IMG/VR virus record: IMGVR_UViG_3300027792_000010
DNA length: 64,000 nt
Origin: a virus
Direction: 5' to 3' (one strand)
Positions 16,015-51,661 of the stretch are shown one piece after another. How positions within the stretch are numbered: the first letter of the stretch is position 1; each line of letters opens with the position of its first letter. Below the pieces are notes generated by a model. It did no database searches and was not told the DNA's origin. It saw only the letters and a list, made by a program, of their open reading frames with translations. A program made the position numbers and the translations under genes.

Positions 16015-16841
16015 AAATCCCCAATTTAAAAGTGGTTATTTCGTGGCTGTTATGGATGGTGCTCACTATTTCCCTTGCTTTTTATTAATGCAATCTTCTC
16101 TTTAAATGCGTCATAGGTATGTCCTGATACACCACCGTGTAATGATAGATAACCTGCTAAAAGTTCAAAGTTAGATATCTCTGATAAAGTCCAGCCCCTA
16201 ACTTTTATATATTTAAACAACATAGAAAAGAAATATCTATAATCTTTTTTAATTTCACGTACCCACCACGGTATCTTATTTTTTCTTAATGCAGACTTCT
16301 ATAGCACGAGGCTGTTGTGCATTGTTTGGATGAATTTCCGTAATTTTAGAGATGCAAGATGATTTATAGCACCATACGTTGTCTGGACATTTTATACCAT
16401 GCTGCTCCCCACAATAACTATAACGAAATGGACACTCTTTCATAAGCACCTCCTATTAAATAAAAACTCAAAAAATTATGTCATGTACTGATAATTACTT
16501 AAGAATAAGTACAAAATACATAATCCTTAATGTAAAGCCGTTCCGAGCTGCGGCTGTTGTGCTCGGCCTGTTGTTCGGTGTGGAGCACAGGTTCTGCCAG
16601 TTTAACGCATCCCGGCTCCTTTAGGCACCGATGCCCTGGACTATAAAGTTTGCCACAATAAATACATGGATGCTGCATTTTACCTCCTGCCGCGCCTATC
16701 TGTAAAGACTCAGCGCAGCATTTCTTACAACGTCTCTGCAACTGGTGCTGGAAACGCCTATAATAGAAATCAATCCTTAGTGTCTTGCGTTTCTGGCATC
16801 CCTTGCTGTGTTGGCTGCTGTCTGCCGGTTCTCCGCAATTT

Positions 16842-17223
16842 TCAGGCGCGGCATCTTCCGTAATCCACATGATGTATTGATTTCTCTTTAGTTGGGCCTA
16901 CGTCATACGTACATGATACGCACCCAAATAAAAAATTACCAGATTTTCCGTGAAGAGCGTCTTCAAGAGTTAACATTTTAGATGGTGGAAACTTTTTATC
17001 TATGGAACTATCACTCCACGAGAGTCCCACTTCTATAAGTTCCCTTATAGGGCAATCCTGTAAAGCCTGACGTGCTTTTCCAAATCCATTAGTTTTTGAT
17101 TTATTAATATTTAGTGTTACGCATAAAAGATTGGGCCATCTCCTCATAATATGAGAATCCTCTATAGAATACCCAGCATCCTTGATAATCTTTAATACTG
17201 TATGTCTGGATTTTAATTTCATG
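16842..17223 (-). CDS. Cassette ORF, hypothetical
   Basis: Start moved to MKLKSRH (SD AAGGA) downstream of attC 17272-17331. Confidence 0.55.
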
Positions 17224-17342
17224 GTTTCCTTTCTTGCCGCGCCCCACCAGTTCCAAAAACAGGCAGATTTCAGCCAACGTGTTTCCGCATTGTGCAGTGA
17301 GCTTTGGCATTGCATAATGCGGCTGTTGTAAGATGTAAATTT

Positions 17343-17597
17343 TTATTCATTAGTGCCTTGCGGCGCGTCTTCGTCTGTAATAATCATATGCACCTTTGGT
17401 TCTCCAATAACGGTTATTTTCCTCTGGTGGTGCTTAATTCCACCAATAACGCTTTCTGCATTGATAAATCGCATCTCTGTTTTGAAATCATCCAACGCTT
17501 GCTTGTGTACCTGAGATACCGACGTGCTACCATCCCACACAGAATCGCCGGGAATTTCTAATTCAACAGTTACTGTTGCACGGACTCTTGTTTTCAT
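17343..17597 (-). CDS. Cassette ORF, hypothetical
   Basis: ORF between attC 17638 and attC 17272. Confidence 0.6.
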   Translation of the reverse strand: MKTRVRATVTVELEIPGDSVWDGSTSVSQVHKQALDDFKTEMRFINAESVIGGIKHHQRKITVIGEPKVHMIITDEDAPQGTNE

Positions 17598-17649
17598 CTT
17601 AGCGCCGCCTATAATTTAAGGTTTAAAAATTTATTTCTTACAACGTTTA

Positions 17650-17895
17650 CTAAACGGCTGATAGTTTTGCGTCGATCTGCTCCAAAAGCCCCTTGACACT
17701 ACCCATATCATCAGCACACGCACACTGTTTGGTACGCTGAATAAGCAGCAAAATTTCAGCCTTTAGCTGTTGTAGGCTGTTACCGTTTTCTTCCACTGAT
17801 TTTATGGCGGCATCCCATATATTTTGAGACCCCGGTTGAAAACTGTGTTTTGCGTACCATTCGCTACGGAACTCATCCAATGTTTTGGCCGCCAT
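17650..17895 (-). CDS. Cassette ORF whose C-terminus is encoded by the attC
   Basis: Start MAAKTL (SD GGAGG); 'LQQLKAEI...AKLSAV' spans attC 17638-17775. Confidence 0.65.
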   Translation of the reverse strand: MAAKTLDEFRSEWYAKHSFQPGSQNIWDAAIKSVEENGNSLQQLKAEILLLIQRTKQCACADDMGSVKGLLEQIDAKLSAV

Positions 17896-17956
17896 GTTAT
17901 ACCTCCAGAAAAAACGGTAATTGACTACAACGGTTGACAAATGGCAGTAGTTTGCC

Positions 17957-18202
17957 CTACCACCAAAAATCGCAATACTCACAATGTTTAGACCCATTAC
18001 GCATATCCTTACCTTCACCAGAGCAATTAGGGCAAATTATTGCCTTTGTTTGTTGTTGGCTGTTAAAATTTTCTTCCAATGGTTTTAAAGGCGAAGGCTT
18101 ACAATTCCTTTCCTCTTCAAAATCTGGCATTGGCGAATTTCTAAATGTTTCTTTAAGACGCTTTTTTATCTCTTCTGAGCCTGACATATAATATCCTTTC
18201 AA
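17957..18202 (-). CDS. First cassette ORF of array A (CxxCxG motifs)
   Basis: Follows the attI-like GTT; C-terminus runs inside attC 17925-18058. Confidence 0.55.
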   Translation of the reverse strand: MKGYYMSGSEEIKKRLKETFRNSPMPDFEEERNCKPSPLKPLEENFNSQQQTKAIICPNCSGEGKDMRNGSKHCEYCDFWW

Positions 18203-18223
18203 AATTTTAATGGCCTACAACTA

Positions 18224-18287
18224 TCTATTATACGACAGTACCTTGTGTAACTCTTTGATTTTCTTTTAGATAAAATTTTTGAAATTT
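18224..18287. repeat. 64-bp direct repeat (attI-like), copy 1
   Basis: 63/64 identical to 51598..51661; each copy is immediately followed (minus strand) by the first GTTGT of a cassette array and contains TATAAT. Confidence 0.92.
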
Positions 18288-18467
18288 TCCTGTTATTCTA
18301 CTTAAAGGATAGCCGTCTTGTATTAAAGCTCTAATTACAGCATATCTAATATATTTAGAACGTGAAATTTTTAATTTTCTGCCTTGATGCTCACACCCAT
18401 AAGCTAAAATAGGCTCCAGATAAATCTTATAATCACACCGTATTTTATCAGATAATTTTGCTATCAT
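18228..18467 (-). CDS. Small ribbon-helix-helix-like DNA-binding protein; 3' end overlaps the attI-like site
   Basis: 'ISRSKYIRYAVIRAL' RHH-type helix; behind promoter 18474. Confidence 0.5.
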   Translation of the reverse strand: MIAKLSDKIRCDYKIYLEPILAYGCEHQGRKLKISRSKYIRYAVIRALIQDGYPLSRITGKFQKFYLKENQRVTQGTVV

Positions 18468-18508
18468 ACATATAATATACTTTTTTGAAAGACTTTTATA
18501 AAAAATTA

Positions 18509-18877
18509 TTATTCAAAAATCTTAAAGAGTTGTGGGGATGCTGTAGCTATATGCTTAGGAAGGTCTGTAAATTCTATAGGAGTAATTGTATATAGATTCA
18601 TGTTAACATAATCCAATCTGAAATACTCTATTTCCTCACCAAACCATTTATTCAGAGGAACATATTGTCTTCGCATTCTTTTTTTATGAAAAGTCTTTAG
18701 TATAGATTTTCTGTTTGGATTAGATAGCACTTTAAATCTGATATGATCCTTATAGAAATGAGTAAGCTGTACGGGTATACCAGAAATCTCACTATCATTC
18801 TTTCTAAACATATAAAAGGATTCTCTTTTAAGACCATGAATCTCTGGGTGTAAAATAAGGGCAATATTGTACTTCAT
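18509..18877 (-). CDS. Hypothetical protein
   Basis: ORF track with SD GGAG. Confidence 0.55.
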   Translation of the reverse strand: MKYNIALILHPEIHGLKRESFYMFRKNDSEISGIPVQLTHFYKDHIRFKVLSNPNRKSILKTFHKKRMRRQYVPLNKWFGEEIEYFRLDYVNMNLYTITPIEFTDLPKHIATASPQLFKIFE

Positions 18878-19049
18878 AAGCTCTCCTTAAAATAAGAGCC
18901 GGACTAATCCGGCTTCATATACCTTTGTTGCACTATTAATTTATAACTCAGTTTGAGTATTTTGCCACCCTACCCCTCGATTAGTCTATAAAGGCCGAAG
19001 GACATATCTACAGTAGAGCAATTGGCTACACGCTACATACCCTCCTCCT

Positions 19050-20336
19050 TTATTTAGTGAATGGAAATATAGAAGATAGTGCCGATCTCCTGTTCAAGGA
19101 GGACGGACTATGGTTATTATCGTCAAGATCGTAGTGATCATCACTTGGAATTGTTATCTTTTTGCCCCACGGAACAGAACAGTATTTATTATCAATCAGT
19201 ATCCAAATAACTTCTTTTACACCTATAGGATACTCTACAGTATCCCCCTGACCATCTGTAAGCATAATCAAAGCATTGTATCTACCTTTCACAGCCACAT
19301 CCATAGTAGGTTTGAAAGAAGTCCCACCTCTTCCATGCATCTCAAATTTGATAGCTTTATGCTCAAAAGGTTCAGGCCCGTATGATAAGGCAGCATCATG
19401 CATAACAAGATCTACGGCATAGTGCTCTCTGATAGCATTTACCTCTGCAAGTATTTGAGAAAGCTGTACGTCACTTACCGAGGCTGAGGTATCTACACTT
19501 ACTAGTACCCTATCCATATATTGAGGGCGCATGCCTGGAAAAGGCCATCCATACCGTCTATCAAAAGTCTTTAGATATGGGGTGTTTTTTGCAGATACCA
19601 TCATACCAAGGTACTGTCTTAGTTGATTCTGCCATTGTACTTTAGACCTCTGAGCAGCTCTTATGATAGACTGGCAGTTAGAGGGGACTTTTCCCCATAC
19701 TGCTTCATCCTTCATTAGCTTCTGTACAAGAGACCTTATCTCTGCTTGCGCAGCAGGGCATTCATCCCAATTATCGTGGGTATCAAAACTACCACCCTTT
19801 CCATCTCCGTACCCTATACCAATCTGTGGAAACTGATCATCTTTCAATAGCTTGAAATAGTACTCTAATGGCATATTTTCAGGGAATGGCTTCTTTTTTC
19901 CTAAAGAATCAACTTCATCTAAGTGATAATCGGAAGGTCGTATCCCTTTAAACTTACCCTCAGGCATTTTTCTATAGGTACCATCTGTGAGAATGGAGTT
20001 GATAGCGAGATCCCCCGCTATGTTATGCTTACGTCTACGTGTGACCTCTTCTGACTTTCTATGGGTGCAATGCCCCAGTACAACATGGTAGGTTTCATGT
20101 GTTAGGATATAGCGTACATAAGCGTCATTAAGATTGGAAAGTTCCTTTATAAATTCTGGGTTATAGGTAAGGACGATCTTATTACTGCCCTTTTCTACAT
20201 ATACCCCCATAGTATCTATTTTCGTTGACGGTACTTTCTCTAACCGAAGAAGTATCCGATGTACGAAAGGATCTGATGTAACGAGGAACTGGAGGTTGTA
20301 ATCCAGTATGTCTTCTCCTGTTATACCCTTCTTCAT
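19050..20336 (-). CDS. DUF2201-type metallopeptidase plus VWA domain protein
   Basis: 'LTHETYHVVLGH' HExxH, 'NIAGDLAIN', MIDAS 'VDTSASVS', 'GRGGTSF'. Confidence 0.9.
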   Translation of the reverse strand: MKKGITGEDILDYNLQFLVTSDPFVHRILLRLEKVPSTKIDTMGVYVEKGSNKIVLTYNPEFIKELSNLNDAYVRYILTHETYHVVLGHCTHRKSEEVTRRRKHNIAGDLAINSILTDGTYRKMPEGKFKGIRPSDYHLDEVDSLGKKKPFPENMPLEYYFKLLKDDQFPQIGIGYGDGKGGSFDTHDNWDECPAAQAEIRSLVQKLMKDEAVWGKVPSNCQSIIRAAQRSKVQWQNQLRQYLGMMVSAKNTPYLKTFDRRYGWPFPGMRPQYMDRVLVSVDTSASVSDVQLSQILAEVNAIREHYAVDLVMHDAALSYGPEPFEHKAIKFEMHGRGGTSFKPTMDVAVKGRYNALIMLTDGQGDTVEYPIGVKEVIWILIDNKYCSVPWGKKITIPSDDHYDLDDNNHSPSSLNRRSALSSIFPFTK

Positions 20337-21547: not shown

Positions 21548-21625
21548 GCTAACGTTTCTCCTTCTACGGTGATATTCCCTTCTGCAGTAATATACTTTTT
21601 TAGAAAAAGATTAGCAAGTAAAAAG

Positions 21626-22852
21626 TTAATTAAAAAATGAGCCCACCCAATCAGAGGATTCTTTTTTATACGCCTGAGTAGATAGTGCTTGAAAAATCAT
21701 ACCTAAGTTAGACCAATCAACAAGATTATCCGATAATATTTCTTTTAGTGTTTTTACTTCTACATATGTTCTTTCTGTATCCTCTTCTACACCGTGAATA
21801 TTTTTATCATTTTTCATCTCATTAATTTCTTTATCAGTAAGTTCTACTTTATATAGAAAAGACTTGTGACTGCTTAGAGTTGCTACTAATTGTCTACTTT
21901 CTAGTTTTTCTAACCTATTTTTATTTATTTTTAATCCTGTCTCTTCTTCTAATTCATGTACTATAACTTCTGACATAGATTCTGTACTATCTTTTGATGA
22001 TCCGCCAGGTATCTCATATACATAACCTTCTTTATTAGACACAGTGGTTCTAAATTCTTTAATAAGTAATATTTCTGTACTAAAAATATCATAACTAGGT
22101 TTGTAGGCTACTAAAGAAGATATATTTGTTCTTGAAAAAACAAACTCATTTGTTTTTTGTCTTTTTTCTTTAGTAATATAGATGTCTGCGTGTAATATGT
22201 AGCTAAGTAGTAATTCCTTATTTTTGCCTACTTTAAAAACCCACTCTAAGTAAGCACTTTCAAGTCTGTTTCCTCCTGCTTTAAGGTCACTATACCAGCT
22301 TTTAAATTGATTAGATTTCCATACTTGTATAGGTATAAACCTTTCTCCATCTTTCCTATAACTACCATCACCTATATAGTTTAAAACAGAATTTATAGTT
22401 TCTTCTAAAGTATTTTCTATTGGTACCTTGTATTTTTTAGCCTTATAGTCTAGGTACCTCATTTTATAAGCATCTTTAGGATAACCTAAAATAACCTTAC
22501 CAGATTTCATCCACTCTCCAAATTCTACATTAGTAGTAAAACCTGGAAGTTTTTCATTACGAGGTACCCAAAATAGTATACAATCAGCCATGTTAAGACA
22601 AGTCTGCTCCCATTCTATTTGGTCTTTATAATCTCCTTTAAAAGGTTCTGGTATAAAAACTACTCCATCATAGCCTTTTCTATTTAATATATTACAGGTT
22701 TCTTTTCTCCAATCCGTAATATCTTCTATACTGTCTCTGCTTGAGGGGCCTGCTAAAAAAATTGACTTGCTCCAGCTTTCTGGTATTTTGTCTTTTGTTG
22801 TTATTATTTTCATACTATCTCCTTTATAATAGTTTCTGATAAAGAACTTCAT
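21626..22852 (-). CDS. Nucleoside 2-deoxyribosyltransferase-like domain fused to a Nudix hydrolase
   Basis: 'SIFLAGP...WRKE...QIEWEQTCLNMADCILFWVP...TTNVEFG'; Nudix box 'YEIPGGS...HELEEETG'. Confidence 0.85.
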   Translation of the reverse strand: MKFFIRNYYKGDSMKIITTKDKIPESWSKSIFLAGPSSRDSIEDITDWRKETCNILNRKGYDGVVFIPEPFKGDYKDQIEWEQTCLNMADCILFWVPRNEKLPGFTTNVEFGEWMKSGKVILGYPKDAYKMRYLDYKAKKYKVPIENTLEETINSVLNYIGDGSYRKDGERFIPIQVWKSNQFKSWYSDLKAGGNRLESAYLEWVFKVGKNKELLLSYILHADIYITKEKRQKTNEFVFSRTNISSLVAYKPSYDIFSTEILLIKEFRTTVSNKEGYVYEIPGGSSKDSTESMSEVIVHELEEETGLKINKNRLEKLESRQLVATLSSHKSFLYKVELTDKEINEMKNDKNIHGVEEDTERTYVEVKTLKEILSDNLVDWSNLGMIFQALSTQAYKKESSDWVGSFFN

Positions 22853-23438
22853 TATCTTTACAATAATTTTTTAGTTTATCTAACCATGCCTGAGTTTTGC
22901 ATTTAAACATTCTCGGCATCTCAAACTTCTTTTCTTTCTTTATTTTACATACCAACCCTTCAAAGGTGATCCCAGGCAACTCACTCTTACGGACCTGCTG
23001 CTCTATCTCACGATTAAAGTTACCCCGGAATAGCAGCTTAGCTATATCCAAATGCCCGAACAGCCTAAGGAAATCATCAGGGCCTAGTATCCCTTGTTTA
23101 TAGGGGCTTACATCTATTAAATTCATTATGTGGGGCTCGTTAACATGCTGACCTGCAAAAGAGTTCGGTCCCCAAAATTCAAAGAAAGCCACAGCACTTT
23201 CATATCTCTGCTTAGTGAAGATATCGCTGAGATCTTTTTCCCAGTTACCTTTTATCAAAGGTATAGCTTCGCCCAGATGAGGATGATCCTCACCGAGGAG
23301 TTGGTGACGAGTCCCGAACTTGTAGAATGCTTTTTTCTTGGACCACTCTACACGGATATTGGACCCATCCAACTTATCAAAACCATAAACCAAGGTACCG
23401 TGCTGTTGGTCACGACTTAGCGATGGATATTCCTTCAT
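22824..23438 (-). CDS. RNA ligase-like nucleotidyltransferase
   Basis: 'FDKLDGSN', 'FFEFWG', 'FEGLVCK', 'FKCKT' ligase motifs. Confidence 0.8.
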   Translation of the reverse strand: MKEYPSLSRDQQHGTLVYGFDKLDGSNIRVEWSKKKAFYKFGTRHQLLGEDHPHLGEAIPLIKGNWEKDLSDIFTKQRYESAVAFFEFWGPNSFAGQHVNEPHIMNLIDVSPYKQGILGPDDFLRLFGHLDIAKLLFRGNFNREIEQQVRKSELPGITFEGLVCKIKKEKKFEMPRMFKCKTQAWLDKLKNYCKDNEVLYQKLL

Positions 23439-23608: not shown

Positions 23609-24238
23609 TCATGCACATACTATAATCTTTTTGTCTATCTTTTGAAATACCCAGAAGTAGCTATGAAATTTTCGTGCATGTTTCTGACTACGTAACTGCC
23701 AGTCCGCTACTATTCGATTTTTTGCCAATAGTATGAAAAGGTCTTTAGCATACCAACCCTTCTCTATGGCTTTATCATGTATGAAGCAGTGACAGAAATA
23801 TTGCTTCCCACTACTTACTTTATCCTGACATTTGAATATTAATATTCCATCTTTTTTACAAACCCTATACAACTCAGATAGAGCTTTGTTGTAGAACTCG
23901 TGGAGTGCCTTCTCATTAGGGTACACCCCGAATCTTTTGTTTATCTTATTGCTATCATTATCTTTTTTCAAAGACCCCCCTGTAGTAGCCAAGAATGGAG
24001 GATCAAACATAATTACTTCTACAGATTCATCCGGTAGAGGAAGACTCTCGGCATTAGCTTGTCTGACTCCCTCAATCTGTGGGTCTATATCAAACTTGAA
24101 CTTTGGAGGATTGAGACCTTGCTTATAGAAGTTTCCTTTGCTATAAGTAGGGTCTAGCTCTATGTCCTTCCCACCGCAGTGAAGGCTAAGTAGTGCGCGT
24201 AATAATAGTTGTTCATTATTGTATGTACTTTTAACCAT
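23609..24238 (-). CDS. SAM-dependent (DNA) methyltransferase-like protein
   Basis: 'LDPTYSKG', 'SLPLPDESVEVIMFDPPF', 'LYRVCKKDGILIFKCQD'. Confidence 0.78.
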   Translation of the reverse strand: MVKSTYNNEQLLLRALLSLHCGGKDIELDPTYSKGNFYKQGLNPPKFKFDIDPQIEGVRQANAESLPLPDESVEVIMFDPPFLATTGGSLKKDNDSNKINKRFGVYPNEKALHEFYNKALSELYRVCKKDGILIFKCQDKVSSGKQYFCHCFIHDKAIEKGWYAKDLFILLAKNRIVADWQLRSQKHARKFHSYFWVFQKIDKKIIVCA

Positions 24239-24239
24239 A

Positions 24240-24473: not shown

Positions 24474-24477
24474 CTTG

Positions 24478-25267: not shown

Positions 25268-26608
25268 TCAGTTGATACTGTAGTTTGCCCTAATATACAA
25301 CAATGCTTGTTCTTTTGTTGTAACAGTACCTTCCAATTGTTCAGTGTCTACTGCTTCAAGAATCTCTTTGAATTTAGGTCCGGGTTTGAAACCCATAGCA
25401 ATAAGGTCATTACCATCTACCAATCTATCTGGAAGGATGACCTTACCTCCTGGTTCCTCTGCAAAAGAATCCATAGCTTCTTTAACAAACTGCAAATTAT
25501 CTAATCCTCCATGAGAAGACAAACAATCAGCCTTGTGAAGTTGCAAGTGCTCTTCAAATCTATCCATAGCTATAAATCTCTTAAGCGTGGACTTCCTCAT
25601 GTCCCGTATTACACAGAACTTCATATGGTTCTCAATTAGGGAACAAACCCTATCTATAAAATAATTTGAAAACTTCAACCTGGTTAATAGCTCTCTGGCT
25701 ATATGAGAGCCTTTAATATCATGTCCATTGAACACTAACCGACCTTTCCTATCATCCCAAGCTTTAGTAGTGGGCTTTCCCACATCATGCAACAAAGTAG
25801 CCCACAAAAGCTCTGGGGAGGCTTCTTTTGGGAGGTAATTCAAGGTGAGACAGGTGTGTTTACCGACGCACCCTTCTGGATGAAAGTCCACAGGCTGCTC
25901 ACACCCAAACATATCTTGAATTTCTGGCAGGATATGCTTTAGTATACCAAAATGTTCCAAATCCTTAAGAGCTTCTCCTCTGACTTTACTTTGTTCCAAT
26001 ATTTTTGTCAACTCATCTGCTATTCTCTCTACAGATATTTTCTTGATAAGGATACTATTATCCATTATAGCTTTCTCTGTATCGGAGTCCATAGAGAACC
26101 CCAAACGGTGTTTGAACCTTATGGCCCTCATTAATCTTAAGTGGTCTTCCAATATTCTCTCTTCAGGATCACCTATGAACCTAATTAATTTATCTTCTAT
26201 ATCTTTTCTACCGCCTACGTAATCATAGTACTCCTCAAGGGTAGGGTCATAAAAGATACCATTGATAGTGAGGTCTCTCCTGTTAGCATCCTCTTCCATA
26301 GTAGAAAACTCAACACTTGAAGGATGTCTACCATCCAAGTAAATACCTGCGTCTCTTCTAAAAGTAGCGACCTCAAATTGAATCCCATCAAGTATAACAA
26401 TTATTACGCCAAAAGCTTTCCCTACTTCTATATTATTAGGGAACAGTTCCTGAACTTGGTGAGGAAAAGCAGAGGTAGCTATATCATAATCATGCGGCAT
26501 AACACCCATAATTTGGTCACGATTGCAACCGCCAGCAAATACCGCTTGATATCCTGCGCTCTGTAGAATTTTAATAATACCTACAGCAAGTTCTTTTTGC
26601 TTATCCAT
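25268..26608 (-). CDS. cca: CCA-adding enzyme / class II tRNA nucleotidyltransferase with HD domain
   Basis: 'FAGGCNRD...DYDIAT', 'RRDLTING', 'EDHLRLMRAIRF', HD 'LLHDVGKP'. Confidence 0.9.
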   Translation of the reverse strand: MDKQKELAVGIIKILQSAGYQAVFAGGCNRDQIMGVMPHDYDIATSAFPHQVQELFPNNIEVGKAFGVIIVILDGIQFEVATFRRDAGIYLDGRHPSSVEFSTMEEDANRRDLTINGIFYDPTLEEYYDYVGGRKDIEDKLIRFIGDPEERILEDHLRLMRAIRFKHRLGFSMDSDTEKAIMDNSILIKKISVERIADELTKILEQSKVRGEALKDLEHFGILKHILPEIQDMFGCEQPVDFHPEGCVGKHTCLTLNYLPKEASPELLWATLLHDVGKPTTKAWDDRKGRLVFNGHDIKGSHIARELLTRLKFSNYFIDRVCSLIENHMKFCVIRDMRKSTLKRFIAMDRFEEHLQLHKADCLSSHGGLDNLQFVKEAMDSFAEEPGGKVILPDRLVDGNDLIAMGFKPGPKFKEILEAVDTEQLEGTVTTKEQALLYIRANYSIN

Positions 26609-27165: not shown

Positions 27166-27306
27166 AAAAAATCCTCCCTTATTAGGAAGTAATATACTAT
27201 TTGGGAATTAAAATTGAAAGTAGGATAAAGATACAGGTCTCTGTAGTTTATATAATCTGCTATGTTTGCTGCAGCTCCGCCTACATAAAGGTATTACAGA
27301 AATAAA

Positions 27307-27386: not shown

Positions 27387-27875
27387 TCAATACCCTAATA
27401 ATAGTAAAGCTTTATCTATGTCTAAATCAGAAAGCCCTATTAAGCTATCTGTTAGTACTAAATGATCTTTTAAATCTCCCAAATCATGATCCTCATCATC
27501 TATTATTATGTACTTACCCTTAAACTTGTTAGACCTTAACCAACTTTTTATTTCATCACTTCTATTATGGCTTATACGATTAGTATTTTTTAGTCTTACA
27601 CCGCAAGGGATCATTCCTATTATTTTATCTATGGGTACTGTTATAGCATCTACTGCAAAAGGATTGACACCATGTATAGCTCCATTTATCCTAAATATAT
27701 CTTTTAGCTTTTCCAATCCTGTTACATCTGACATCCAGCTACTTGTTATTACTAAGTTAGCATCTGTTATATCAATAAGTCTATTTAGTCTTTTTATAGT
27801 ATCTAAATCAAAATATAAATAGTCAGTATTTGCGGTACACAGCACCCCATCAATGTCTAAAAAGATAATATTCAT
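27387..27875 (-). CDS. HAD-family phosphatase (RNA-repair HAD_SAK_2-like)
   Basis: 'IIFLDIDGVL', 'LVITSSW', 'RSDEIKSWL', 'YIIIDD'; start moved to MNII because the longer ORF overlaps tRNA-Val. Confidence 0.82.
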   Translation of the reverse strand: MNIIFLDIDGVLCTANTDYLYFDLDTIKRLNRLIDITDANLVITSSWMSDVTGLEKLKDIFRINGAIHGVNPFAVDAITVPIDKIIGMIPCGVRLKNTNRISHNRSDEIKSWLRSNKFKGKYIIIDDEDHDLGDLKDHLVLTDSLIGLSDLDIDKALLLLGY

Positions 27876-27895
27876 GTTATCACTTTCTATTTTAA

Positions 27896-27968
27896 TAGGC
27901 TTATTCGGATTCGAACTGAAGACCTCCTGCACGTCGAGCAGGCGCTCTTCCAATTGAGCTATAAGCCC
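27896..27968 (-). tRNA. tRNA-Val(GAC), atypical (C33; one T-stem mismatch)
   Basis: Acceptor GGGCTTA/TAAGCCT, anticodon arm CCTGC-TCGACGT-GCAGG. Confidence 0.82.
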
Positions 27969-32616: not shown

Positions 32617-32888
32617 TTCAACCTATCTCCTTAAAGTCATCAGGAAGAGGTGATGGTAGAGTAGCCTTATATTCTTCCATAGCTTCTGTCATAAGGTTTT
32701 TCAGCTCAGTACCAAAAGTGACTCTATCGTATGACTTTGATTTCTCATCTAAGAAATCAATAAGTTCAAGAATCTTGCTCATATCTACCTCATTGTGTTT
32801 TTACAATATACTTTTTGTTAATAGGCTTTTCAAATTAACAAATTAAATACTTTACAATTTCGACTCTATAGTACCTCATTCTTTAATA

Positions 32889-33377: not shown

Positions 33378-33466
33378 CCAAAGCTCCTGTATTTAGATCT
33401 CAAGTCTTAAATAATATACTATTTGGAGGGGAGAAATTAAAAGAAAAGTAAAAATACACCGTTCCT

Positions 33467-34582
33467 TTAAACTTGGATAAATCCAACTTCATAAGGTTTG
33501 TAACGGGCACCGTACAGCCCCGTAAGAAATCGAGTCAATATGTTCACAGCTCCGATCACGTCGGCGTTGCCTATGTGACCACATTTCAGGCACCGGAACA
33601 CTTGTCCTACTCGATTCCCCCTATTGACATGACCACAGCTTGGGCATGTTTGGCTGGTATAATAAGGAGCTACAGTGCGAAAACTAACACGGTTAGTCTC
33701 GCAAGCTTGCTCAAGCCTTTTTAACCAATACCTATACGCCCAAGTGCCGATAGAACGCCGCATATTTTTACTCAAGCGGCGTTTGAGTTTACTTTTGAAA
33801 TTCATGTTCTTAAGAGCTTCAACCACGACTAAATCGATGTGTTTGAACTCTTTGACAATTTCTTGTACAACTTCATCTATTCTTTGTTTAAAAGCTCTAC
33901 GAGCCTGTTTTTGCCCATTAGAGCCATGAGTGCAGCGTTTGATACGTTCAATACAGGCTTCTGTATCTAAACCAAATTGCTGGCCATTATTAATAGAAGC
34001 AAGTGCTTTTATCCCTGTGTCAATACCGATAGCATTTACACCTTCTTTTTTCTTGCCAGCATCTATTTCGAAAGAGAACTGAACATAGTTATCTGTGAGG
34101 ATGTAGGAATTAAGGCGTTTTCCCTGAAGAGCCAATTTATTATAATGTTTATGAAACTTTATAGGTATATCAAGGATTGTATCTTCACCAATAGACTGGA
34201 GATGGAGCCAAGCATCAAATTCTTTAGAGTCCTCTTTTTCCTGAAGATCAGCTATAGTACAGGAAACATAAGCTCTTTTGCCTTTATGAATGGGCATAGA
34301 GATTTTCCAAGGCTTATCTTTCCATCGTTCTTTTACGGCAGTAATCATATCTATAGCTTCTCTGGCTGCGACCTTTCGGAGCCTAGCGGTGAGCCACGTA
34401 CCATGAGGGATGTCAACAATTTCTTTTAAGAGTTCTGATTTAGAAGGAGTTCCATTCTTCCAGAAGTAATTGATAAAAGTGTTACAGACCCGACCATACT
34501 CAGCGAGGACCTTACGAAGCTCGGAGAGTTTGGAGGCTGTAGCAAATTTAAGACTACATTTAGAAGAACGAATCAGTTTCAT
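33467..34582 (-). mobile_element. tnpB: TnpB RNA-guided nuclease (solo, no TnpA)
   Basis: RuvC-I 'IGIDTG', RuvC-II 'VVEAL', Zn ribbon 'TSQTCPSCG...FRCLKCG', RuvC-III 'NADVIGAVNI'. Confidence 0.93.
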
Positions 34583-35813: not shown

Positions 35814-35853
35814 ATAATTATAATATACTATTTGGTATTCTAACTTTAAAGTA

Positions 35854-35936
35854 TGGAGCCTGGAGAGGGAGTTTCACCCTCTGGTCGCTTTATCCCCGAG
35901 CGAGTGGGGACCCTTAGCTTCAAGAGCTATCCCGGC
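35854..35936 (-). ncRNA. tRNA-like RNA with CCA end and a pseudoknot-capable hairpin replacing the anticodon arm
   Basis: Acceptor GCCGGGA/TCCAGGC + T + CCA; T-like arm GAGGG-TGAAACT-CCCTC; D-like TAGCT/AGCTA; TCCCC-ACTCGCTC-GGGGA whose loop TCGCT can pair with downstream AGCGA. Confidence 0.55.
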
Positions 35937-36908: not shown

Positions 36909-37310
36909 TTATGCTAAAGCACTTAGTCCTTTAGGTAACTTTTTCAGAGTATCTTTACGTACTTCTTCCGCTTGATCTATTAGTTTATTTCTATTTTGAC
37001 CAGCATTGAGTTTACTCAAGTAACGTACTAGGTCATGATATTCTGCATCTAACACGTCTTTAGTCTTTGCGGATTGTATATCTATTAATTTAGCTTCTAC
37101 ATCATTCTTTATTCTATTTTGATTAGTTCCTTCGGCTTGTAAGCTACCTATCATAGATAGAAGTGCTAAAGCCGCCCCGCCTATTACTTTCCCGAACATC
37201 CCTGCTTCAATACTATTTGCAGCAGCATCTAACATTTCAGCTTCTTTAATTAATCCCTTACTTTCAAGTGAGTTTGCGACTACATCTAAAATAGCAATTA
37301 CTTCTTTCAT
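36909..37310 (-). CDS. Probable virion protein with the shared LDxxAxSLExKGxIKEA module and a hydrophobic segment
   Basis: N-terminal module shared with 37307, 37878 (twice) and 49279. Confidence 0.6.
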   Translation of the reverse strand: MKEVIAILDVVANSLESKGLIKEAEMLDAAANSIEAGMFGKVIGGAALALLSMIGSLQAEGTNQNRIKNDVEAKLIDIQSAKTKDVLDAEYHDLVRYLSKLNAGQNRNKLIDQAEEVRKDTLKKLPKGLSALA

Positions 37311-37873
37311 GGCATATCTCCTGTTTTTAACTTTTCAAGGGTATATCTATAAAATAATTTTTCTATTGGTCCTGGTAATTTTTTATCTACTAATAAAAAA
37401 TTTACCATCATAGCAAAAGCCTCATGCGGTGTATTTTTCAAAGGTTTTTCTGCTTCTTCTACGATTTTTGGGGTTATTACATGACTAAAATAAGATCCGT
37501 TACCTAAATACCTATCAAGCCAGTGTCCAAGTTCGTGAGCTACAAAATCTTCTATAGTAGCTCCTATTTTTTTTAGACCTTCAAAGTCTATGTACAGGAC
37601 TCTGTTTTTTAAATCTATATACCCAGGTTCCCCTTTTGATTTAGTTTCATCATACTGTGGGTGTTGATTTGTTCTAAATTCATTTATACCTGGGAATATA
37701 TTAAATACTTTTTTAAAATCATTTATAACTTTTTTAGCTATGCTTTGATAATTAAGATACTCCATAGCATTAGCTGTAATATCTATACTATAGGCTTCTT
37801 TTATAAAACCTTTTTCTTCTATAGATGATGCTATACCATCTAATAGTATTGCTATTTTTTTATAATTTATCAT
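37307..37873 (-). CDS. Shared-module protein with an HExxH metallopeptidase motif
   Basis: N-terminal module; 'FVAHELGHW'. Confidence 0.65.
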   Translation of the reverse strand: MINYKKIAILLDGIASSIEEKGFIKEAYSIDITANAMEYLNYQSIAKKVINDFKKVFNIFPGINEFRTNQHPQYDETKSKGEPGYIDLKNRVLYIDFEGLKKIGATIEDFVAHELGHWLDRYLGNGSYFSHVITPKIVEEAEKPLKNTPHEAFAMMVNFLLVDKKLPGPIEKLFYRYTLEKLKTGDMP

Positions 37874-37877: not shown

Positions 37878-39140
37878 TTACTTTTTTATCTCATCAAGTA
37901 TCTTTATAACTGTAGTAGGGTGTACATCAGGTATTTCGCCCACAAGAAAATCTTCTAAATCTTGATATTTGCTCATAATATTAGCGGGGAATGCTTCTTC
38001 CATATATGCAAAAGACTTTTCTTGCAATCCTGCTCCATCCTCTGTTTCCATCAATTTAGTATAATTATCCCACCACTTTTTATTAGATAATTTTAATAGA
38101 TTAAGCTCATTACTATCTAATCTATTAAGAAATTCTTTAAATTTAGCCACCTGTACAGGCGTTAGTTTTTTACCCATCCCTGCTGTTTTAGGGACAGATT
38201 TCCAACCTATAGGTTGCTGCTCAGGCATGAGTTTATTCAGATATTTATAAATTTCTGGAAATCTTTTGAAGAACTTATCCTCTGTAATAGATATTCCATC
38301 CCATCTTCTTTCAGAGCTGTTCCATTTCTTCATAAACCTGATACCATCAGGGCCCTCAAACCATTTTTTAAGCATATCTTGCTCTGCTGGACCAAGATTA
38401 GCCCAAAGCTTTATAGGCATCTTATACTGATTCAAAGGATTACCTAAAGAATCCTGATTACTCTTATTTACAACTACTTCTAAAGTATTAGATATAATAT
38501 CAAGTTTTTCGGCTTCTTTTATTAATCCTTTACCCTCAGCATAACTAGCTACTTTATCTAATATTTCTAATTTAACTGCTGTATCTATACTATTATTTGA
38601 TTCTTCTTTTTCTAAGGTATTAGAGATTATATCTAATACCTCGGCTTCTTTTATTAACCCTTTACCCTCTAATGAATCAGATACCTCATCTATCATTGAG
38701 GACATCTTTTTAAATACTATTCCAAATTCTTTTTCCATTTCTTTCCTACCTTTTTGTTCTGACCTTTCAGCCTCTTGTTCTAATTGTTTTCTTTTAGTTT
38801 CTATATCTTCAGGATTTATTTTCTCTAACTGTTTTACATGAGTAGCCTCATGCTCCATAACTATCTTCTGTATATTCCTTTTTATGAGTTCTTTAAGCTT
38901 TTGATTCTCTTCTGGATTTGTAGGATGTATCTTTCCAAAAGACTTTTTTATGTTTTCTGAGCAAAGGTGTATGGTATGTGCATCTGCTCCCGGTATTACG
39001 TACCCTGCTATATCACCCTTACAAGAACGTTCTATTTTTACTTTATAAACGTGCTTGGAGGCTAACTGCCCTATTATCTCATTAAGGGCTTCATTGGCTA
39101 TTTGATCATAACCTTCTATACGAACTGATTTTTTATTCAT
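37878..39140 (-). CDS. HExxH protein carrying two internal copies of the shared module
   Basis: 'MEHEATHVKQ'; 'EGKGLIKEAE.LDIISNTLE' twice. Confidence 0.65.
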   Translation of the reverse strand: MNKKSVRIEGYDQIANEALNEIIGQLASKHVYKVKIERSCKGDIAGYVIPGADAHTIHLCSENIKKSFGKIHPTNPEENQKLKELIKRNIQKIVMEHEATHVKQLEKINPEDIETKRKQLEQEAERSEQKGRKEMEKEFGIVFKKMSSMIDEVSDSLEGKGLIKEAEVLDIISNTLEKEESNNSIDTAVKLEILDKVASYAEGKGLIKEAEKLDIISNTLEVVVNKSNQDSLGNPLNQYKMPIKLWANLGPAEQDMLKKWFEGPDGIRFMKKWNSSERRWDGISITEDKFFKRFPEIYKYLNKLMPEQQPIGWKSVPKTAGMGKKLTPVQVAKFKEFLNRLDSNELNLLKLSNKKWWDNYTKLMETEDGAGLQEKSFAYMEEAFPANIMSKYQDLEDFLVGEIPDVHPTTVIKILDEIKK

Positions 39141-44325: not shown

Positions 44326-44537
44326 AAATACTACCCTTTCTTGGGTAAACAGGTGTGTATGATTAATTTTGCTTCTGGGTAATCTTTTTGTATTTGTGAT
44401 AATAGGTCATTCTCTATATCAAAATTCTTTTCATTATAAGATTATGCCCTCTTAAATCTAAGCCAGAGCGAGGTAACACCCAACAGTCTATCAAGTATGT
44501 CATAAAATCTCCTCGCCTATAATATACTTTTTTATAT

Positions 44538-45452
44538 TTATGGTTGAAAATCTTTCTTTTCCAAAGCACTTAAAATTAACTGTATTTTAGCATCTATATC
44601 TTTTACAGAAATGTATTCATTTTGCTGATTTTTGGAAGAATCAGTTGAATAATGTTCTTCTAAAATTTCTGTAAGAAGCTTTTTTAAAGCTCCTTCTTGA
44701 GGTTGAGGAGGAAGAGAACATTTTCTTGATAGCTCCGTTACATAATCCATTCTTTTCTGAAATTCTTTATCGAATCTATCAAAATCACCCCACTCTCCAA
44801 CACGCATAACTTTACACTCCTCTTTACATCTCATTAGATCTATATCCCCTGTGGTTAGGATTTGATCTAATTGATCCAATAATCTAAGAGTATGATAAGC
44901 CATTTTTATATCATACCCATATTTCTCTATTATGGCTTTTCTATCTTCCGTCTCAGGATTTCTTTGTCTTATTCTATGCATTTGCCCATTAGCGTAACCT
45001 TTGAAGGAATGAAAAGTTTTCATAGATAAAAATAGTCTTCTGTTATCTCTAAGATACCACCCCATCTTAGTACCTACAGTAACTAGCTCTCTTCTTACAA
45101 ATAGACATTCAATTAGGTTGGGGGAGCCTTTTAGTCCAGCATGTACAAAAAATTCTATAAGAGAGATCCATTCTGCTTCAAAGGGTTTATCTCCTATTAT
45201 AGTCTTTTTTCCTTTTAACTCTTTTCTTTTGAATTCTGGGAGGTTGTCATACCCTAGTATAAATCCGTAATTCTGAGGATATAGGTGTTCGTGTTTTGGC
45301 AGAACTATAGCGGTAATATCATAATCACTCTTATCTGTTTGACATCCGTAGGCATGAGATCCTACTATGGTCTCTAACATGAGATTATCTACAAGCCACT
45401 GCTCATTTTTTTGAAACTTTCCGTTTTGAGCAAACCACTGTGTATAATTCAT
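44538..45452 (-). CDS. Pol beta-superfamily nucleotidyltransferase (RlaP/YcgL-like)
   Basis: 'IVGSHAYG...SDYD', 'GSPNLIECLF', 'SFKGYA', 'YDIKMAYHTLRLL'. Confidence 0.85.
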   Translation of the reverse strand: MNYTQWFAQNGKFQKNEQWLVDNLMLETIVGSHAYGCQTDKSDYDITAIVLPKHEHLYPQNYGFILGYDNLPEFKRKELKGKKTIIGDKPFEAEWISLIEFFVHAGLKGSPNLIECLFVRRELVTVGTKMGWYLRDNRRLFLSMKTFHSFKGYANGQMHRIRQRNPETEDRKAIIEKYGYDIKMAYHTLRLLDQLDQILTTGDIDLMRCKEECKVMRVGEWGDFDRFDKEFQKRMDYVTELSRKCSLPPQPQEGALKKLLTEILEEHYSTDSSKNQQNEYISVKDIDAKIQLILSALEKKDFQP

Positions 45453-48331: not shown

Positions 48332-48667
48332 GGGTTGAAAGATATCTCATGGTTCTTTTTGAAGAAGTCGTAAAAAACATTCCAAAAATCATGTTGTAAC
48401 CAAGATTTCATGCAGGCTCAAACTTTCTATACGCTTTTCAGGTTTGACTCAGTTTACTTTTCCCCAACAAGTTAAACAGCAAAAAAGCCATCATATGTTT
48501 CATCCTGACTTAGTGTGTGAGTGCTTAGACAATCTTGATTTCAGCAGCTATGAATACCCCTACCTTTATTAATAAAGTTCTAATACAATCTCCATCTAAA
48601 AATAACAGTATAAAAAAGAAGGCCCAGGTAGGGCCTTCTCCTACTTCTTTATTGAGGGATGGTACTA

Positions 48668-49179
48668 TGTCATTTGAAAAAGCTTTAGAATTTGTACTTC
48701 GCTGGGAAGGCGGCTATGTAAATCACCCCTCAGATCCTGGTGGTGAAACTAATAAAGGAATTATAAAAAAAGAGTATAATAAGTATAGGTCAGAGAAATC
48801 TTTACCTTTACGCTCTGTTAAAGGGATAGAGGATTCAGAAGTAAAAGATATTTATGAAAATAAATATTGGAAAGTTGGGCACTGTGATGTAATGGGCGAT
48901 AAACTATCTATAGTTCATTTTGACTCTGTTGTTAATACAGGAATCACCCAAGGGGCTAAATTCCTACAACGTTGTTTGAAGGTTAAGGATGATGGAGTTG
49001 TAGGCCCTGAAACGATTAAGGCTTTGACAGTCTCTAACCAGGATTCTTTGGTATCCGAATATATAGGACAAAGAAAAGCTTTCTATCATAAAATTATTAA
49101 GGTGAATCCTAAATTACAGGTATTTCTTAAGGGCTGGTTAAGGAGAATAGATGCTTTAGAAAAAATAGTATCAGAATGA
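48668..49179 (+). CDS. GH108 lysozyme with peptidoglycan-binding domain
   Basis: 'WEGGYVNHPSDPGGETNKGI', 'FDSVVNTG', 'DGVVGPET', 'FLKGWLRR'; approximate start at MSFEKAL. Confidence 0.92.
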
Positions 49180-49278
49180 TATATTTTCGCTATTTTCTGT
49201 GGGCGCATCTTATTAATAATCTACAAATACTACTACTTATTAGTAGATAGTTAGGTCACTTATTAAGGAGTATTTCAT

Positions 49279-49830
49279 ATGCTGCCTAAAATTTCTTCTA
49301 TACTTGATGCCATTGCCGACTCTCTTGAGGCCAAAGGTTTTATTAAAGAAGCCTATGAGATTGATAAAATTGCTGATGCTATTGAAAAACTATCTTGGGA
49401 TATAGATGAAAAACCTTTAATAGTTAAGGTTAAACCTAACAGTACTATACAAGCAGACACATTACTACTCATAGGACAACTTAAAAAAGATATAGCAAAG
49501 GCTCTAAAGGATATAGCATGGGATGCTTCGAACGCTTATACAAATTATTATGATCAAGCAACTGATAAAACTAAAGAGTTAAAATCCAGACTTAGATCTG
49601 AATTAGAAAAAGCTAAAGTTAGGATATGGTCTAAAAATAATCTTTTTAGTGGCTTGGACGTTGATTCTTGGAAATCAGGTAATTATTATGATATCTCTAC
49701 AATATATGACATAGGTGAAGAGATTAGATCCAATATGAAGGGATTTGCAAAGCATAAAAAATCTGTAAAGGGGTTAAATTTACTGGATCTTATAGCAGAA
49801 ACCTATGATAAATCAAATCCATCATTGTAG
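49279..49830 (+). CDS. Shared-module protein (probable virion protein)
   Basis: 'ILDAIADSLEAKGFIKEAYEIDKIADAIE'. Confidence 0.6.
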   Translation: MLPKISSILDAIADSLEAKGFIKEAYEIDKIADAIEKLSWDIDEKPLIVKVKPNSTIQADTLLLIGQLKKDIAKALKDIAWDASNAYTNYYDQATDKTKELKSRLRSELEKAKVRIWSKNNLFSGLDVDSWKSGNYYDISTIYDIGEEIRSNMKGFAKHKKSVKGLNLLDLIAETYDKSNPSL

Positions 49831-49910
49831 TACTAGTGTCAAAGAGCCTCTGTCTTAATTTCTTCGCGCTCGCCTAAATACTCTCAAGCGGGGCGAATTT
49901 CTTACAACGT

Positions 49911-50138
49911 TCACTGCACAGCCGATAGTTGCCGCAAATCCTGGATAAGAAACACAACTTGCCGACTATCCAAACCGTTACTTTTAGCAGCCTCAAGTTG
50001 CTTTGCAAGAGCGGCAATTTTGGCTTGCAATTGTTGTAGGCTGTTTAAAACAGGCTCAACATCAGCCACGTAATAAAACAACCCCTCACTTGTTTGGTAA
50101 GGACATCCGTTATGAAAATCAATTTTTTTTAAAGACAT
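49911..50138 (-). CDS. Cassette ORF reading through its attC
   Basis: 'LQQLQAKIAAL...RQLSAVQ' spans attC 49902-50039. Confidence 0.6.
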   Translation of the reverse strand: MSLKKIDFHNGCPYQTSEGLFYYVADVEPVLNSLQQLQAKIAALAKQLEAAKSNGLDSRQVVFLIQDLRQLSAVQ

Positions 50139-50300
50139 ATAATAACTCCAATTCTAAGTTGAATACAACGGTTGATGTCTGTATGCTGTGCGGGGCCGAC
50201 GGTAGGGCGCTATACCTACACCTCCGGGTGTCCACTGTTTACCAACGGCGACCACTTATACAGTCTTCGCAGGCCCCACATAGCATACTGCATTTGTTAG

Positions 50301-50454
50301 GCGATTTAAGAAGTTGCCTCCGCAGTGTAAAGCGCATTGCCGCTTACTCAAGGCGACTGGACGTTTCGTTGCAAGCTTGCGACCTGTAACACGGTGTCTT
50401 ACTTCCGGTATGTAGAGTAATGCGCCTATAACCATAAAAGCAACCTCTTATTTC
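50301..50454 (-). ncRNA. Structured, probably non-coding cassette 2
   Basis: Ends shared with 51438-51589 (AGGTTGCTTT...GGAGGCAAC); inner stems GCGCATT/AATGCGC and TTACTC/GAGTAA. Confidence 0.45.
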
Positions 50455-50495
50455 GCCCAACGTTTGCCGCACAGATGCAGTGCGGTACGCCCAGG

Positions 50496-50753
50496 TTATG
50501 ATTTAACCGCATTGCACTCTTGCGGCTGTTGTTTGTCTGTGCTGGCCGTTTCCGCATTCTCCTGCGGCGCGTCTTCGATTTCTTCGACTTTTGTTTTAAT
50601 TGGGAACCAAAGGCGCCCCCCACCAAGGCCATCTTTTTCAAGCATTCTGCACACTGCTTCTGCTTGCTTTTTTGTTTCGTGAGTATCAGTTGTTTGGTTA
50701 TCACAAAAGCCGTGCATCGACTCCCATAGTGCTATTGACATATATCTTTTCAT
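50496..50753 (-). CDS. Cassette ORF, hypothetical
   Basis: SD AGGAG; ends within attC 50455-50534. Confidence 0.6.
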   Translation of the reverse strand: MKRYMSIALWESMHGFCDNQTTDTHETKKQAEAVCRMLEKDGLGGGRLWFPIKTKVEEIEDAPQENAETASTDKQQPQECNAVKS

Positions 50754-50835
50754 TCTTTTCTCCTGTTTTCGCGCTGCCTTTCAAATCAAAGAAAATTTCT
50801 AATTGCACACAACGTCCGACAAACGTGTGAAGTGC

Positions 50836-51057
50836 TCATATCGCACCAAGCATAGATTGAAACTCTTCCTCGCACTTGCTGCAACGCACATTTACAACAT
50901 CAACGCCACACTGTGAGCATTTTACACTTTGTTTGTTGGTTGTCTGTTGAGCGAGTTCCACAATTTTTTTTATGCGCTGTAACGCTTCGCGATGATGTGA
51001 CCAAGTGCCGCTATCGTTTGCAATTTTATCTAAAACTTCCAAATCTGCACTTAGCAT
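50836..51057 (-). CDS. Cassette ORF with CxxC motifs encoded in the attC loop
   Basis: SD GGAGG; 'TTNKQSVKCSQCG...CSKC'. Confidence 0.6.
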   Translation of the reverse strand: MLSADLEVLDKIANDSGTWSHHREALQRIKKIVELAQQTTNKQSVKCSQCGVDVVNVRCSKCEEEFQSMLGAI

Positions 51058-51151
51058 AAAACCTCCAATAAAATTAAGAGCGAAATTGCAACCAACGTTC
51101 TCGCAAATGTACGGTCGTTTTAATGCCGTACTTTGCGTGTTGGCTGTTGTT

Positions 51152-51331
51152 TACTTGCGCTCCTTAGCTATCTGAGGTTTTGCGGCCTCCGATAGCACGA
51201 TACACCTTGCAACTCGCAGACCTTCCAAAACACCATCAAGATATGCAGAAGCATGATCGTACATTTTTACCACGTCTGGGCACTCTCCACTAAGCTCCGC
51301 AAGAACAGCTTCCCTTTCGATTAACACCATA
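51152..51331 (-). CDS. Cassette ORF (59 aa) MVLIEREAVLAELSGE..., below the ORF-track cutoff
   Basis: SD GGAGG; hand-translated, ends AKERK-TAA before attC 51090-51145. Confidence 0.55.
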
Positions 51332-51437
51332 GCAAAACCTCCTATAATATAGCCGCAAGTAAATTGACTACAACGTTTGACACATTATGAAGTTGCGCTT
51401 CGCAATTTACGAAGTGAACATAATGCGTTTGTTGTGC

Positions 51438-51589
51438 GATTTAAAAGGTTGCCTCCATACTGTTACTGTGTGCGCCCTGCGGTTTTCGATGTCTAACGGT
51501 ATGATATACATCCGCCACAATTGCGCCCCAGCATTATCCTATTCACGGTAAACGCACACCTCAAATACAAGAAAGCAACCTTTTATTTT
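51438..51589 (-). ncRNA. Structured non-coding cassette 1
   Basis: AGGTTGC/GCAACCT closing stem; GTGTGCG/CGCACAC and GCGG-GATGT/ACATC-CCGC inner stems; no convincing ORF. Confidence 0.45.
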
Positions 51590-51597
51590 GCACAACG

Positions 51598-51661
51598 TCT
51601 ATTATACGACAGTACCTTGTGTAACTCATTGATTTTCTTTTAGATAAAATTTTTGAAATTT
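51598..51661. repeat. 64-bp direct repeat (attI-like), copy 2
   Basis: 63/64 identical to 18224..18287. Confidence 0.92.

Follow-up and report, generated by a model that had tools for sequence, protein, structure and literature searches.

How two rows of small units, divided from one another by palindromes, came to be assembled in a phage genome is the question raised by a 64,000-nucleotide stretch of IMG/VR virus record IMGVR_UViG_3300027792_000010, referred to throughout as the window. The stretch comes from a very large phage with a GC content of 36.8% and genes nearly all on the minus strand. A preliminary description, made from the letters alone, took the two rows (arrays A and B) for integron-like arrays whose units are bounded by attC-type palindromes. 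Integrons are regarded as a bacterial device, with one enzyme, IntI, and one site geometry. We find that the cassettes of the window are real mobile units, and we judge it fairly probable that the arrays are rows of small mobile cassettes belonging to a phage-borne integron-like recombination system. The units are held to be mobile because of a complementarity between each site and its own cassette, covariation within the hairpins, a strand bias in folding, and reshuffling among relatives.

To describe the sites as a family, we built a covariance model of the hairpin, R1, from 29 seed sites, nine of them from the window, and ran it without filters; a larger alignment comprises 44 sites, drawn from the window and from related loci, the R1 seed being the shorter set. 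With both strands of the 64-kb window scanned, R1 matched ten sites, all on the minus strand, and no other at E<0.1. Four lie in array A (16717-18066, minus) and six in array B (49894-51445, minus), ten of ten at the places given in the preliminary description. The nine seed sites of the window score 51-69 bits, and the tenth, that of cassette A4, was matched from outside the seed set (27 bits, E 5e-6). A pattern scan (YAAC, a short spacer, a stem with a bulge in the 3' arm, 4-6 nt, GTTG) gave 12 minus-strand matches, where 100 shuffles averaged 3.9. An Rfam scan returned only tRNAs and a sub-threshold skipping-rope match.

On the minus strand, the palindromes run from nnnCAAC and an A through a stem to the opposing arm of that stem, which carries one extra base, and then through 4 to 6 nt to GTTGnnn. 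The layout first proposed stands: we see an AAC separated by 1-2 nt from an L box, and a second L box, which has an extra base, separated by 4-6 nt from a GTT. Folded as single-stranded DNA (ssDNA), most of the window palindromes adopt a nested shape of outer R stem, asymmetric loop and L stem with a bulge in its 3' arm. The outer stem of the hairpin (nnnCAAC/GTTGnnn) is 7-9 bp long and leads through an asymmetric internal loop to a stem of 6 bp; beyond a single bulged base come a second stem, a conserved loop (AAAT x ACTTC) and a top that varies. Every one of the 44 aligned sites has CAAC and GTTG unchanged, with pairs 62-65/250-253 paired at 99%. The 3' box continues from GTTG with T (35 sites) or G (8 sites), A or G, and any base; its fifth position is mostly T, a non-purine, and its variable part is 3 nt long, as opposed to the R-box consensus RYYYAAC/GTTRRRY. 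Conservation extends beyond the cores to ACAKC ahead of the 5' box, an invariant A after CAAC, the AAAT x ACTTC inner loop and KMAAT behind the 3' box. Many cassette open reading frames (ORFs) extend 30-40 codons into the site.

The variable bases of the 5' box are the first sign of mobility. In an array, the hairpin is closed by the downstream box, and the three variable 5'-box bases complement that box in 1 of 34 cassettes. The same three bases exactly complement the first bases of their own cassette in 25 of the 34. These 34 are the cassettes, from the window and related contigs, with a known upstream border, and the site scan was unconstrained at those bases. The complementarity is frequently 8-9 nt long. 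Such a pattern marks a unit that is circularly permuted: as in integron cassettes, its hairpin becomes complete only once the unit is a circle.

The L stems of the hairpin covary, with a score of 0.289 that 0 of 500 column shuffles reached (0.142 in the shuffles). In helix 3, the main helix, all 7 of 7 pairs show double changes, and cassettes A2 and B6 differ by four compensatory pair changes while retaining the bulged G. The non-coding strand folds more stably, by 1.95 kcal/mol, and does so at 36 of the 44 sites (p about 1e-5). The opposite holds for 300 control segments drawn from phage genes (-0.47), in which the coding strand is a slightly better folder. Since the preference runs against that of the controls, it points to DNA, not the transcript, as the folding molecule. 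The bottom strands of attC sites have a stability advantage of 2.12 kcal/mol (Nivina et al. 2016, PMC5027507), and the folding strand of the window sites is most likely the non-coding one, as in integrons.

These observations bear on another explanation, in which the palindromes are regulatory hairpins (terminators or RNA-processing sites) and the genes between them are shuffled by homologous or microhomology recombination at short boxes, as has been proposed for promoter-early stem-loop (PeSL) cassettes. Conserved boxes of up to 30 nt do exist between cassettes, it is exactly there that the A2 family swaps its N- and C-terminal modules, and no recombinase is in view. Homologous exchange, however, fails to explain the match of 5' boxes to the cassette's own start (25/34 versus 1/34). 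At these sites the transcribed strand is the less stable one, opposite to the background trend; no T-run terminators lie behind the hairpins, and the sites diverge widely in sequence while keeping their structure. We regard this explanation as unlikely. The claim of discrete cassettes bounded by AAC/GTT hairpins is upheld by the own-start complementarity, by the covariation and by the reordering in relatives.

The units of the two arrays are as follows; bit scores are those of R1, and the complementarities are between the 5' box of a cassette and its own first bases.

17931-18220, minus strand: cassette A1, ORF 17957-18187 (76 aa, CxxC pairs, weak Pfam zinc-ribbon matches); hairpin 18058-17925, which folds; 69 bits.
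17644-17930, minus strand: cassette A2, ORF 17650-17895 (81 aa, MAAKT family); hairpin 17775-17638 within the last 40 codons; 64.9 bits; CTACAAC complementary to GTTGTAG.
17278-17643, minus strand: cassette A3, ORF 17343-17597 (84 aa); short hairpin 17332-17272; 55 bits; TCTTACAAC complementary to GTTGTAAGA, 9/9.
16731-17277, minus strand: cassette A4, ORF 16842-17222 (126 aa; a 95% identical counterpart on another contig) and an overlapping ORF from 16870; degenerate hairpin 16816-16725; 27.1 bits, E 5e-6; CAGCCAAC complementary to the start, 8/8.
16276-16730, minus strand: degenerate units A5 (ORF start 16677; leader similar to the A3 leader) and A6 (ORF 16276-16443); 5' half-sites (CACAACAGCC), no 3' arm and no R1 match.
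51374-51595, minus strand: cassette B1, a highly structured 166-nt unit with no convincing ORF; hairpin 51437-51368; 61.6 bits; GCACAAC complementary to GTTGTGC, 7/7.
51096-51373, minus strand: cassette B2, ORF 51151-51330 (59 aa; homologues of 83-86% identity on several other contigs); hairpin 51145-51090; 61.9 bits; DNA fold z -3.9.
50813-51095, minus strand: cassette B3, ORF 50836-51057 (73 aa, zinc-ribbon-like); hairpin 50941-50807; 65.5 bits; AACCAAC complementary to GTTGGTT, 7/7.
50461-50812, minus strand: cassette B4, ORF 50496-50753 (85 aa; a cluster relative is carried by a 190,913-bp contig); hairpin 50534-50455; 54 bits.
50169-50460, minus strand: cassette B5, a structured 166-nt unit with a possible 59-aa ORF (50256-50435); hairpin 50302-50163; 51.3 bits.
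49908-50168, minus strand: cassette B6, ORF 49911-50138 (75 aa, A2 paralogue); hairpin 50039-49902; 60.2 bits; D9 and D11 repeats; an A3-like leader remnant behind it.

Most of the cassette ORFs have their own Shine-Dalgarno (SD) sequence; B1 lacks a convincing ORF. Array A had been drawn from 16314, and its sites lie where they were placed, while from A4 down to 16276 the stretch holds only the two degenerate units with 5' half-sites. Pfam searches of the cassette proteins gave weak zinc-ribbon matches only. The bodies of B1 and B5 (51431-51596 and 50296-50461, minus) are both exactly 166 nt long and have a common nested fold (RNA z -5.1 and -4.4), including a 15-bp stem in which pairing is kept through compensatory changes. 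Units related to B1 and B5 on the contigs G001 and L005 carry a T-arm-like element, GTAGG-TTCGACG-CCTAC. The B1 and B5 units may yield a structured RNA product.

Reshuffling was assessed in relatives fetched with an A2 protein alignment, namely the 116.8-kb IMG/VR contig G001 and twelve contigs from JGI metagenomes, each 1-3.4 kb long. R1 gave 46 matches in 13 related loci (45 in the twelve JGI contigs and L037 together), all on the ORF strand, and 8 matches in G001. Cassette types are common to related metagenome and IMG/VR contigs, in differing order. The MAAKT cassette, which always starts GTTGTAGTCAATT, stands behind at least eight different hairpins and ahead of seven different cassettes; variation in cassette order, proposed at the outset as a check, is thus found. 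On several related contigs the arrays sit at contig ends or make up short array-only contigs, which fits variation in order within populations. Homologues of A2 are mosaics, in which varied N-terminal modules are joined at NSLQQLKAEI, encoded by the 5' box and L box, to varied C-terminal modules ending in KLSAV-stop, encoded by the 3' L box. Relatives recognised by their ribonucleotide reductase (RNR), at about 50% identity, mostly lack sites, which occur on only 1 of the 10 largest contigs tested. A 47-kb RNR relative, G008, has three weaker sites with ORFs antisense to them. A megablast search of INPHARED with the two arrays found nothing, and two flanking proteins (DnaJ-like, and that of ORF 18509-18877) had no relatives in IMG/VR. 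A second kind of repeat, 40-70 bp long and 90-100% identical, occurs between genes beside a single hairpin cassette on contigs L011, L012 and L013; copies on L012, for example, lie at 372-409, 606-645, 1424-1472, 1712-1760, 2066-2114, 2895-2933 and 3100-3148.

Where one unit ends and the next begins is not fixed by the own-start rule alone, which is compatible with exchange at either the 3' box or the 5' box. We favour a border at or beside the G/TT of the 3' box because homologies end there, the entry repeat ends at GTTG and the ORFs are kept whole. Between G001 and another relative, L014, whole-cassette homology runs from GTTG to GTTG, and between G001 and array A, homology of the N-terminal module starts exactly at GTTG, as does that of the MAAKT cassette. 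A crossover at the 5' box, with the coding strand as the bottom strand, would suit the polarity of the bulge. We rejected it as the main border because the whole-cassette and N-module homologies start at the GTTG of the 3' box, where the entry repeat ends, the MAAKT cassette stands behind at least eight different hairpins, the ORFs would otherwise be split and the non-coding strand is the more stable.

In many respects the arrays follow integrons. Their small genes bear SD sequences and lack promoters, the AAC/GTT hairpin carries a bulge and varies in its terminal part, the border is of the G/TT type, and the inverse core matches the start of its own cassette. The non-coding strand is stabler by about 2 kcal/mol, the upstream entry is constant, some cassettes have no ORF, and site types are homogeneous within a lineage. 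The asymmetry of the site, however, is reversed. The attC sites compared (the aadA1 attC of R100 and three attC of Shewanella phage M16-3) have their extra bases in the 5' arm of the coding strand, whereas window-type sites that carry a bulge have it in the 3' arm of the coding strand, corresponding to the AAC arm of the non-coding strand; all aligned sites have the 4-6-nt spacer in that 3' arm. The extrahelical bases of attC stand opposite the 5'-AAC of the recombined bottom strand (Nivina et al. 2016, PMC5027507). The spacers of window-type sites are 1 versus 4-5 nt and those of attC about 5 versus 6. Window-type sites differ further in their conserved flanks (ACAKC and KMAAT), their conserved inner loop, and ORFs that run 30-40 codons into the site. 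On the genuine attC sites of R100 and phage M16-3, R1 gave nothing above 12.5 bits. The sites are therefore non-canonical, with an asymmetry mirrored relative to attC, and the label attC-type, in its strict sense, was not sustained.

A cluster of attC sites without an integrase (CALIN) is defined by at least two attC sites spaced by less than 4 kb. That layout is present in the window, with 4 and 6 sites; membership of the class depends on the sites counting as attC, and the polarity of the bulge, a defining feature of attC, is reversed. The arrays could be such true integron cassettes, captured from a host integron by host IntI and carried passively by the phage. The AAC/GTT cores, the bulged hairpin with its variable top, the G/TT border and the own-start complementarity are all integron traits, and the GC of arrays A and B (0.41 and 0.45) is above that of the remaining window (0.365). 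Integrons and 17 CALINs have been found in phage genomes, and IntI1 was active on 5 of 6 phage attC sites tested (Qi et al. 2023, PMC9892861). Those CALINs resemble the window arrays in being hairpin-bounded clusters without an integrase, in virulent or uncharacterised phages, and in DNA methyltransferase cargo, for which the counterpart is a weak, sub-threshold match in the relative L014; their sites, however, are called canonical attC by IntegronFinder or HattCI and most are recombined by IntI1, whereas the window has two arrays behind a common entry, and its genome is about 200 kb in size. R1 found no site in three of the published phage CALINs (PH101, TJE1 and MW202573) and reached only 13 bits in a fourth, P12002L. 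Capture by IntI is opposed by the bulge and long spacer, which lie on the arm with the cleaved 5'-AAC, the reverse of attC (PMC5027507), and by the 3' box, GTTG-T-R-N and not GTTRRRY, with its extra conserved flanks.

The genes carried also speak against a bacterial source. One genome from each of 185,579 bacterial and archaeal species was searched for the A2 cassette family, the sole family so searched, and none contained it. A cassette gene of L014 (350-1000), methyltransferase-like by a weak, sub-threshold match, is 51% identical to a gene outside the cassettes of the window (23609-24238, minus), which belongs to the core of the phage. The cassette gene pool looks viral, and passive carriage of host integron cassettes is, in our estimation, quite improbable.

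Phages are already known to carry hairpin-bounded cassettes. The PeSL cassettes of T4-type phages, reportedly described by Arbiol and colleagues in 2010, are said to be mobile and are thought to recombine through sequence homology. Like the window arrays, they hold small accessory ORFs separated by stem-loops, in plastic regions and shuffled among relatives. PeSL cassettes carry a promoter, whereas the window sites have no phage promoter, keep structure over sequence and bear the signature of circular permutation. In the literature we found no paper on arrays of this site type, nor on such arrays in huge phages.

A shared sequence precedes both arrays, and a promoter-like motif lies further upstream of each:

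18224-18287, minus strand: array A entry, 64 bp, forming the 3' coding end of ORF 18228-18467; identity ends 2 nt before the GTTG at 18221-18218.
51598-51661, minus strand: array B entry, 64 bp, non-coding, downstream of ORF 51667-51906; identity ends 1 nt before the GTTG at 51596-51593.
18472-18513, minus strand: promoter-like motif (TTTCAAAAAAGTATATTA) ahead of ORF 18228-18467 and array A; repeat family D7, related to D2 and D10.
51954-51997, minus strand: promoter-like motif ahead of ORF 51667-51906 and array B; repeat family D10.

The two entries are identical at 63 of 64 positions, and at 70 of 74 across 74 bp. The sequence that follows the 64 bp is TA-GTTGTAGG in array A and C-GTTGTGC in array B. 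Both arrays were said to begin right behind this sequence; we see each begin at a GTTG, with a gap of 1-2 nt. In G001 the entry is partly homologous, sharing TCAATGAGTTAC with the array B entry, followed by 27 nt and GTTGTAG; the first cassette behind it is B6-like, not B1, and the entry-adjacent ORFs of the window and G001 are unrelated. No fold was found in the entry sequence. The junction of A2 with the A3 leader recurs behind B6, at the end of array B, and together with the shared entry this indicates that the arrays are related in part by duplication or homologous exchange. Arrays A and B thus share ancestry through one of these routes, and the capture platforms first proposed, at least two in number, may or may not be independent.

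The TATAAT noted within the 64 bp has no -35 element at 16-18 nt. The promoter-like phage motif stands about 250 bp upstream of both arrays; there are about a dozen copies in the window, none of them within the arrays. The copies (minus strand TTYCAAAAAGTATATTA) lie at 2339-2376, 6045-6082, 15090-15131, 18472-18513, 21588-21625 and 27190-27227, and further ones at 32804-32841, 33412-33449, 35821-35858, 44519-44560 and 51954-51997. They are found only about 5-10 nt ahead of start codons or just behind tRNA genes. The repeated motif suggests a phage-specific promoter with very short leaders. The cassettes have SD sequences but lack this motif, and we read them as promoterless.

What would move the cassettes was sought among the window ORFs of at least 155 aa, searched against Pfam and PHROGs. 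No integrase adjoins the arrays, as first described, and none of these ORFs carries PF00589. In G001, the tyrosine, HUH and serine enzyme families (PF00589, PF01797 and PF00239) were all absent, and G008 lacked PF00589. Protein Atlas gave no recombinase lead for two ORFs of no recognised function. The enzyme may be encoded in the remaining 138 kb of the genome or in the host, or may be of an unrecognised kind; perhaps it is a small Xer-like tyrosine recombinase.

Two TnpB genes (OrfB_IS605/Cas12f-like TNB; 2-1201 and 33467-34582, minus), with no TnpA nearby, raise a different candidate, in which the units are miniature single-strand elements moved by an HUH enzyme of the IS200/IS605 type and piled up in tandem. 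HUH transposases do act on imperfect one-strand hairpins with extrahelical bases. Each unit of the window, however, has one hairpin, whereas IS200/IS605 elements have two distinct end hairpins and no 7-9-nt end-to-end complementarity; the TnpB genes are far from the arrays, and a Y1 transposase (PF01797) was found neither in G001 nor among the Pfam-scanned window ORFs. We consider this origin highly improbable.

Several points weigh against a phage-borne integron-like system. No circular cassette or excision junction was seen, and the geometry of the hairpin is unlike that used by IntI. The window ORFs of the size searched include the two distant TnpB genes but no recombinase of the tyrosine, serine or HUH type, in a search that covered 64 kb of a 202-kb genome. 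Homology breakpoints fall at the 5' box as well, yielding mosaics of N- and C-terminal modules. These breakpoints require a second process, probably homologous exchange within the 30-nt box common to the A2 family; a second site-specific event at the 5' box is possible. Two independent capture platforms are also possible, and here the duplicated material shared by the arrays counts against the reading.

With these points taken into account, we still favour an integron-like system, and for its mechanism we lean towards site-specific recombination of folded DNA. A cassette has a short leader that starts TTGnnn(K)(M)AAT, then an SD sequence and either a small ORF or a structured unit of 166 nt, with the hairpin downstream. 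Exchange would take place at or beside C|GTTG. In the excised circle, the outer stem would be completed by the first bases of the cassette itself, and insertion at the fixed entry would place promoterless cassettes downstream of a phage promoter. Recombination would thus proceed on folded ssDNA, through a circular intermediate, with an enzyme supplied in trans. A more specific version, which we put forward tentatively and hold to be somewhat less than an even chance, is that the sites form a separate, phage-specific family of folded single-strand sites, the mirror image of attC, on which a recombinase other than IntI acts, exchanging entire genes between large phages and, in addition, N- and C-terminal protein modules. 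Module swapping enters this version because genes often contain the site within their final 30-40 codons.

Elsewhere, the window has 16 tRNA genes, one of them a suppressor with a CTA anticodon (2537-2609, minus) that reads TAG, a hint that part of the genome may have a reassigned stop codon; the window ORFs are intact under the standard code. It also encodes a CCA-adding enzyme, RNA ligases, an NAD salvage set, an anaerobic ribonucleotide reductase and the two TnpB proteins. Genes for RNA repair and tRNA maintenance (two RNA ligases, the CCA-adding enzyme, HAD_SAK_2, RlaP and NYN) lie beside the tRNA clusters, at 4652-5638, 22824-23438, 25268-26608, 27387-27953, 44538-45452 and 57816-58343, and, as expected, such a set fits the countering of anticodon nucleases. 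Between 37206 and 38697, four diverged copies of an 88-nt coding repeat extend across the adjoining minus-strand ORFs 37307-37873 and 37878-39140, which have no family match.

The arrays bring integron logic into a huge phage and its relatives from sediment, with cassettes that lack promoters, a site that folds, exchange of the G/TT type and a fixed point of entry, but with the geometry of the hairpin reversed. Should the enzyme be found, cassette capture would prove to have evolved, or to have been remodelled, in viruses. Its discovery would provide a second type of structure-specific recombination site for engineering. It would also explain the turnover of small accessory genes in large phages, genes that probably serve in host takeover or counter-defence.

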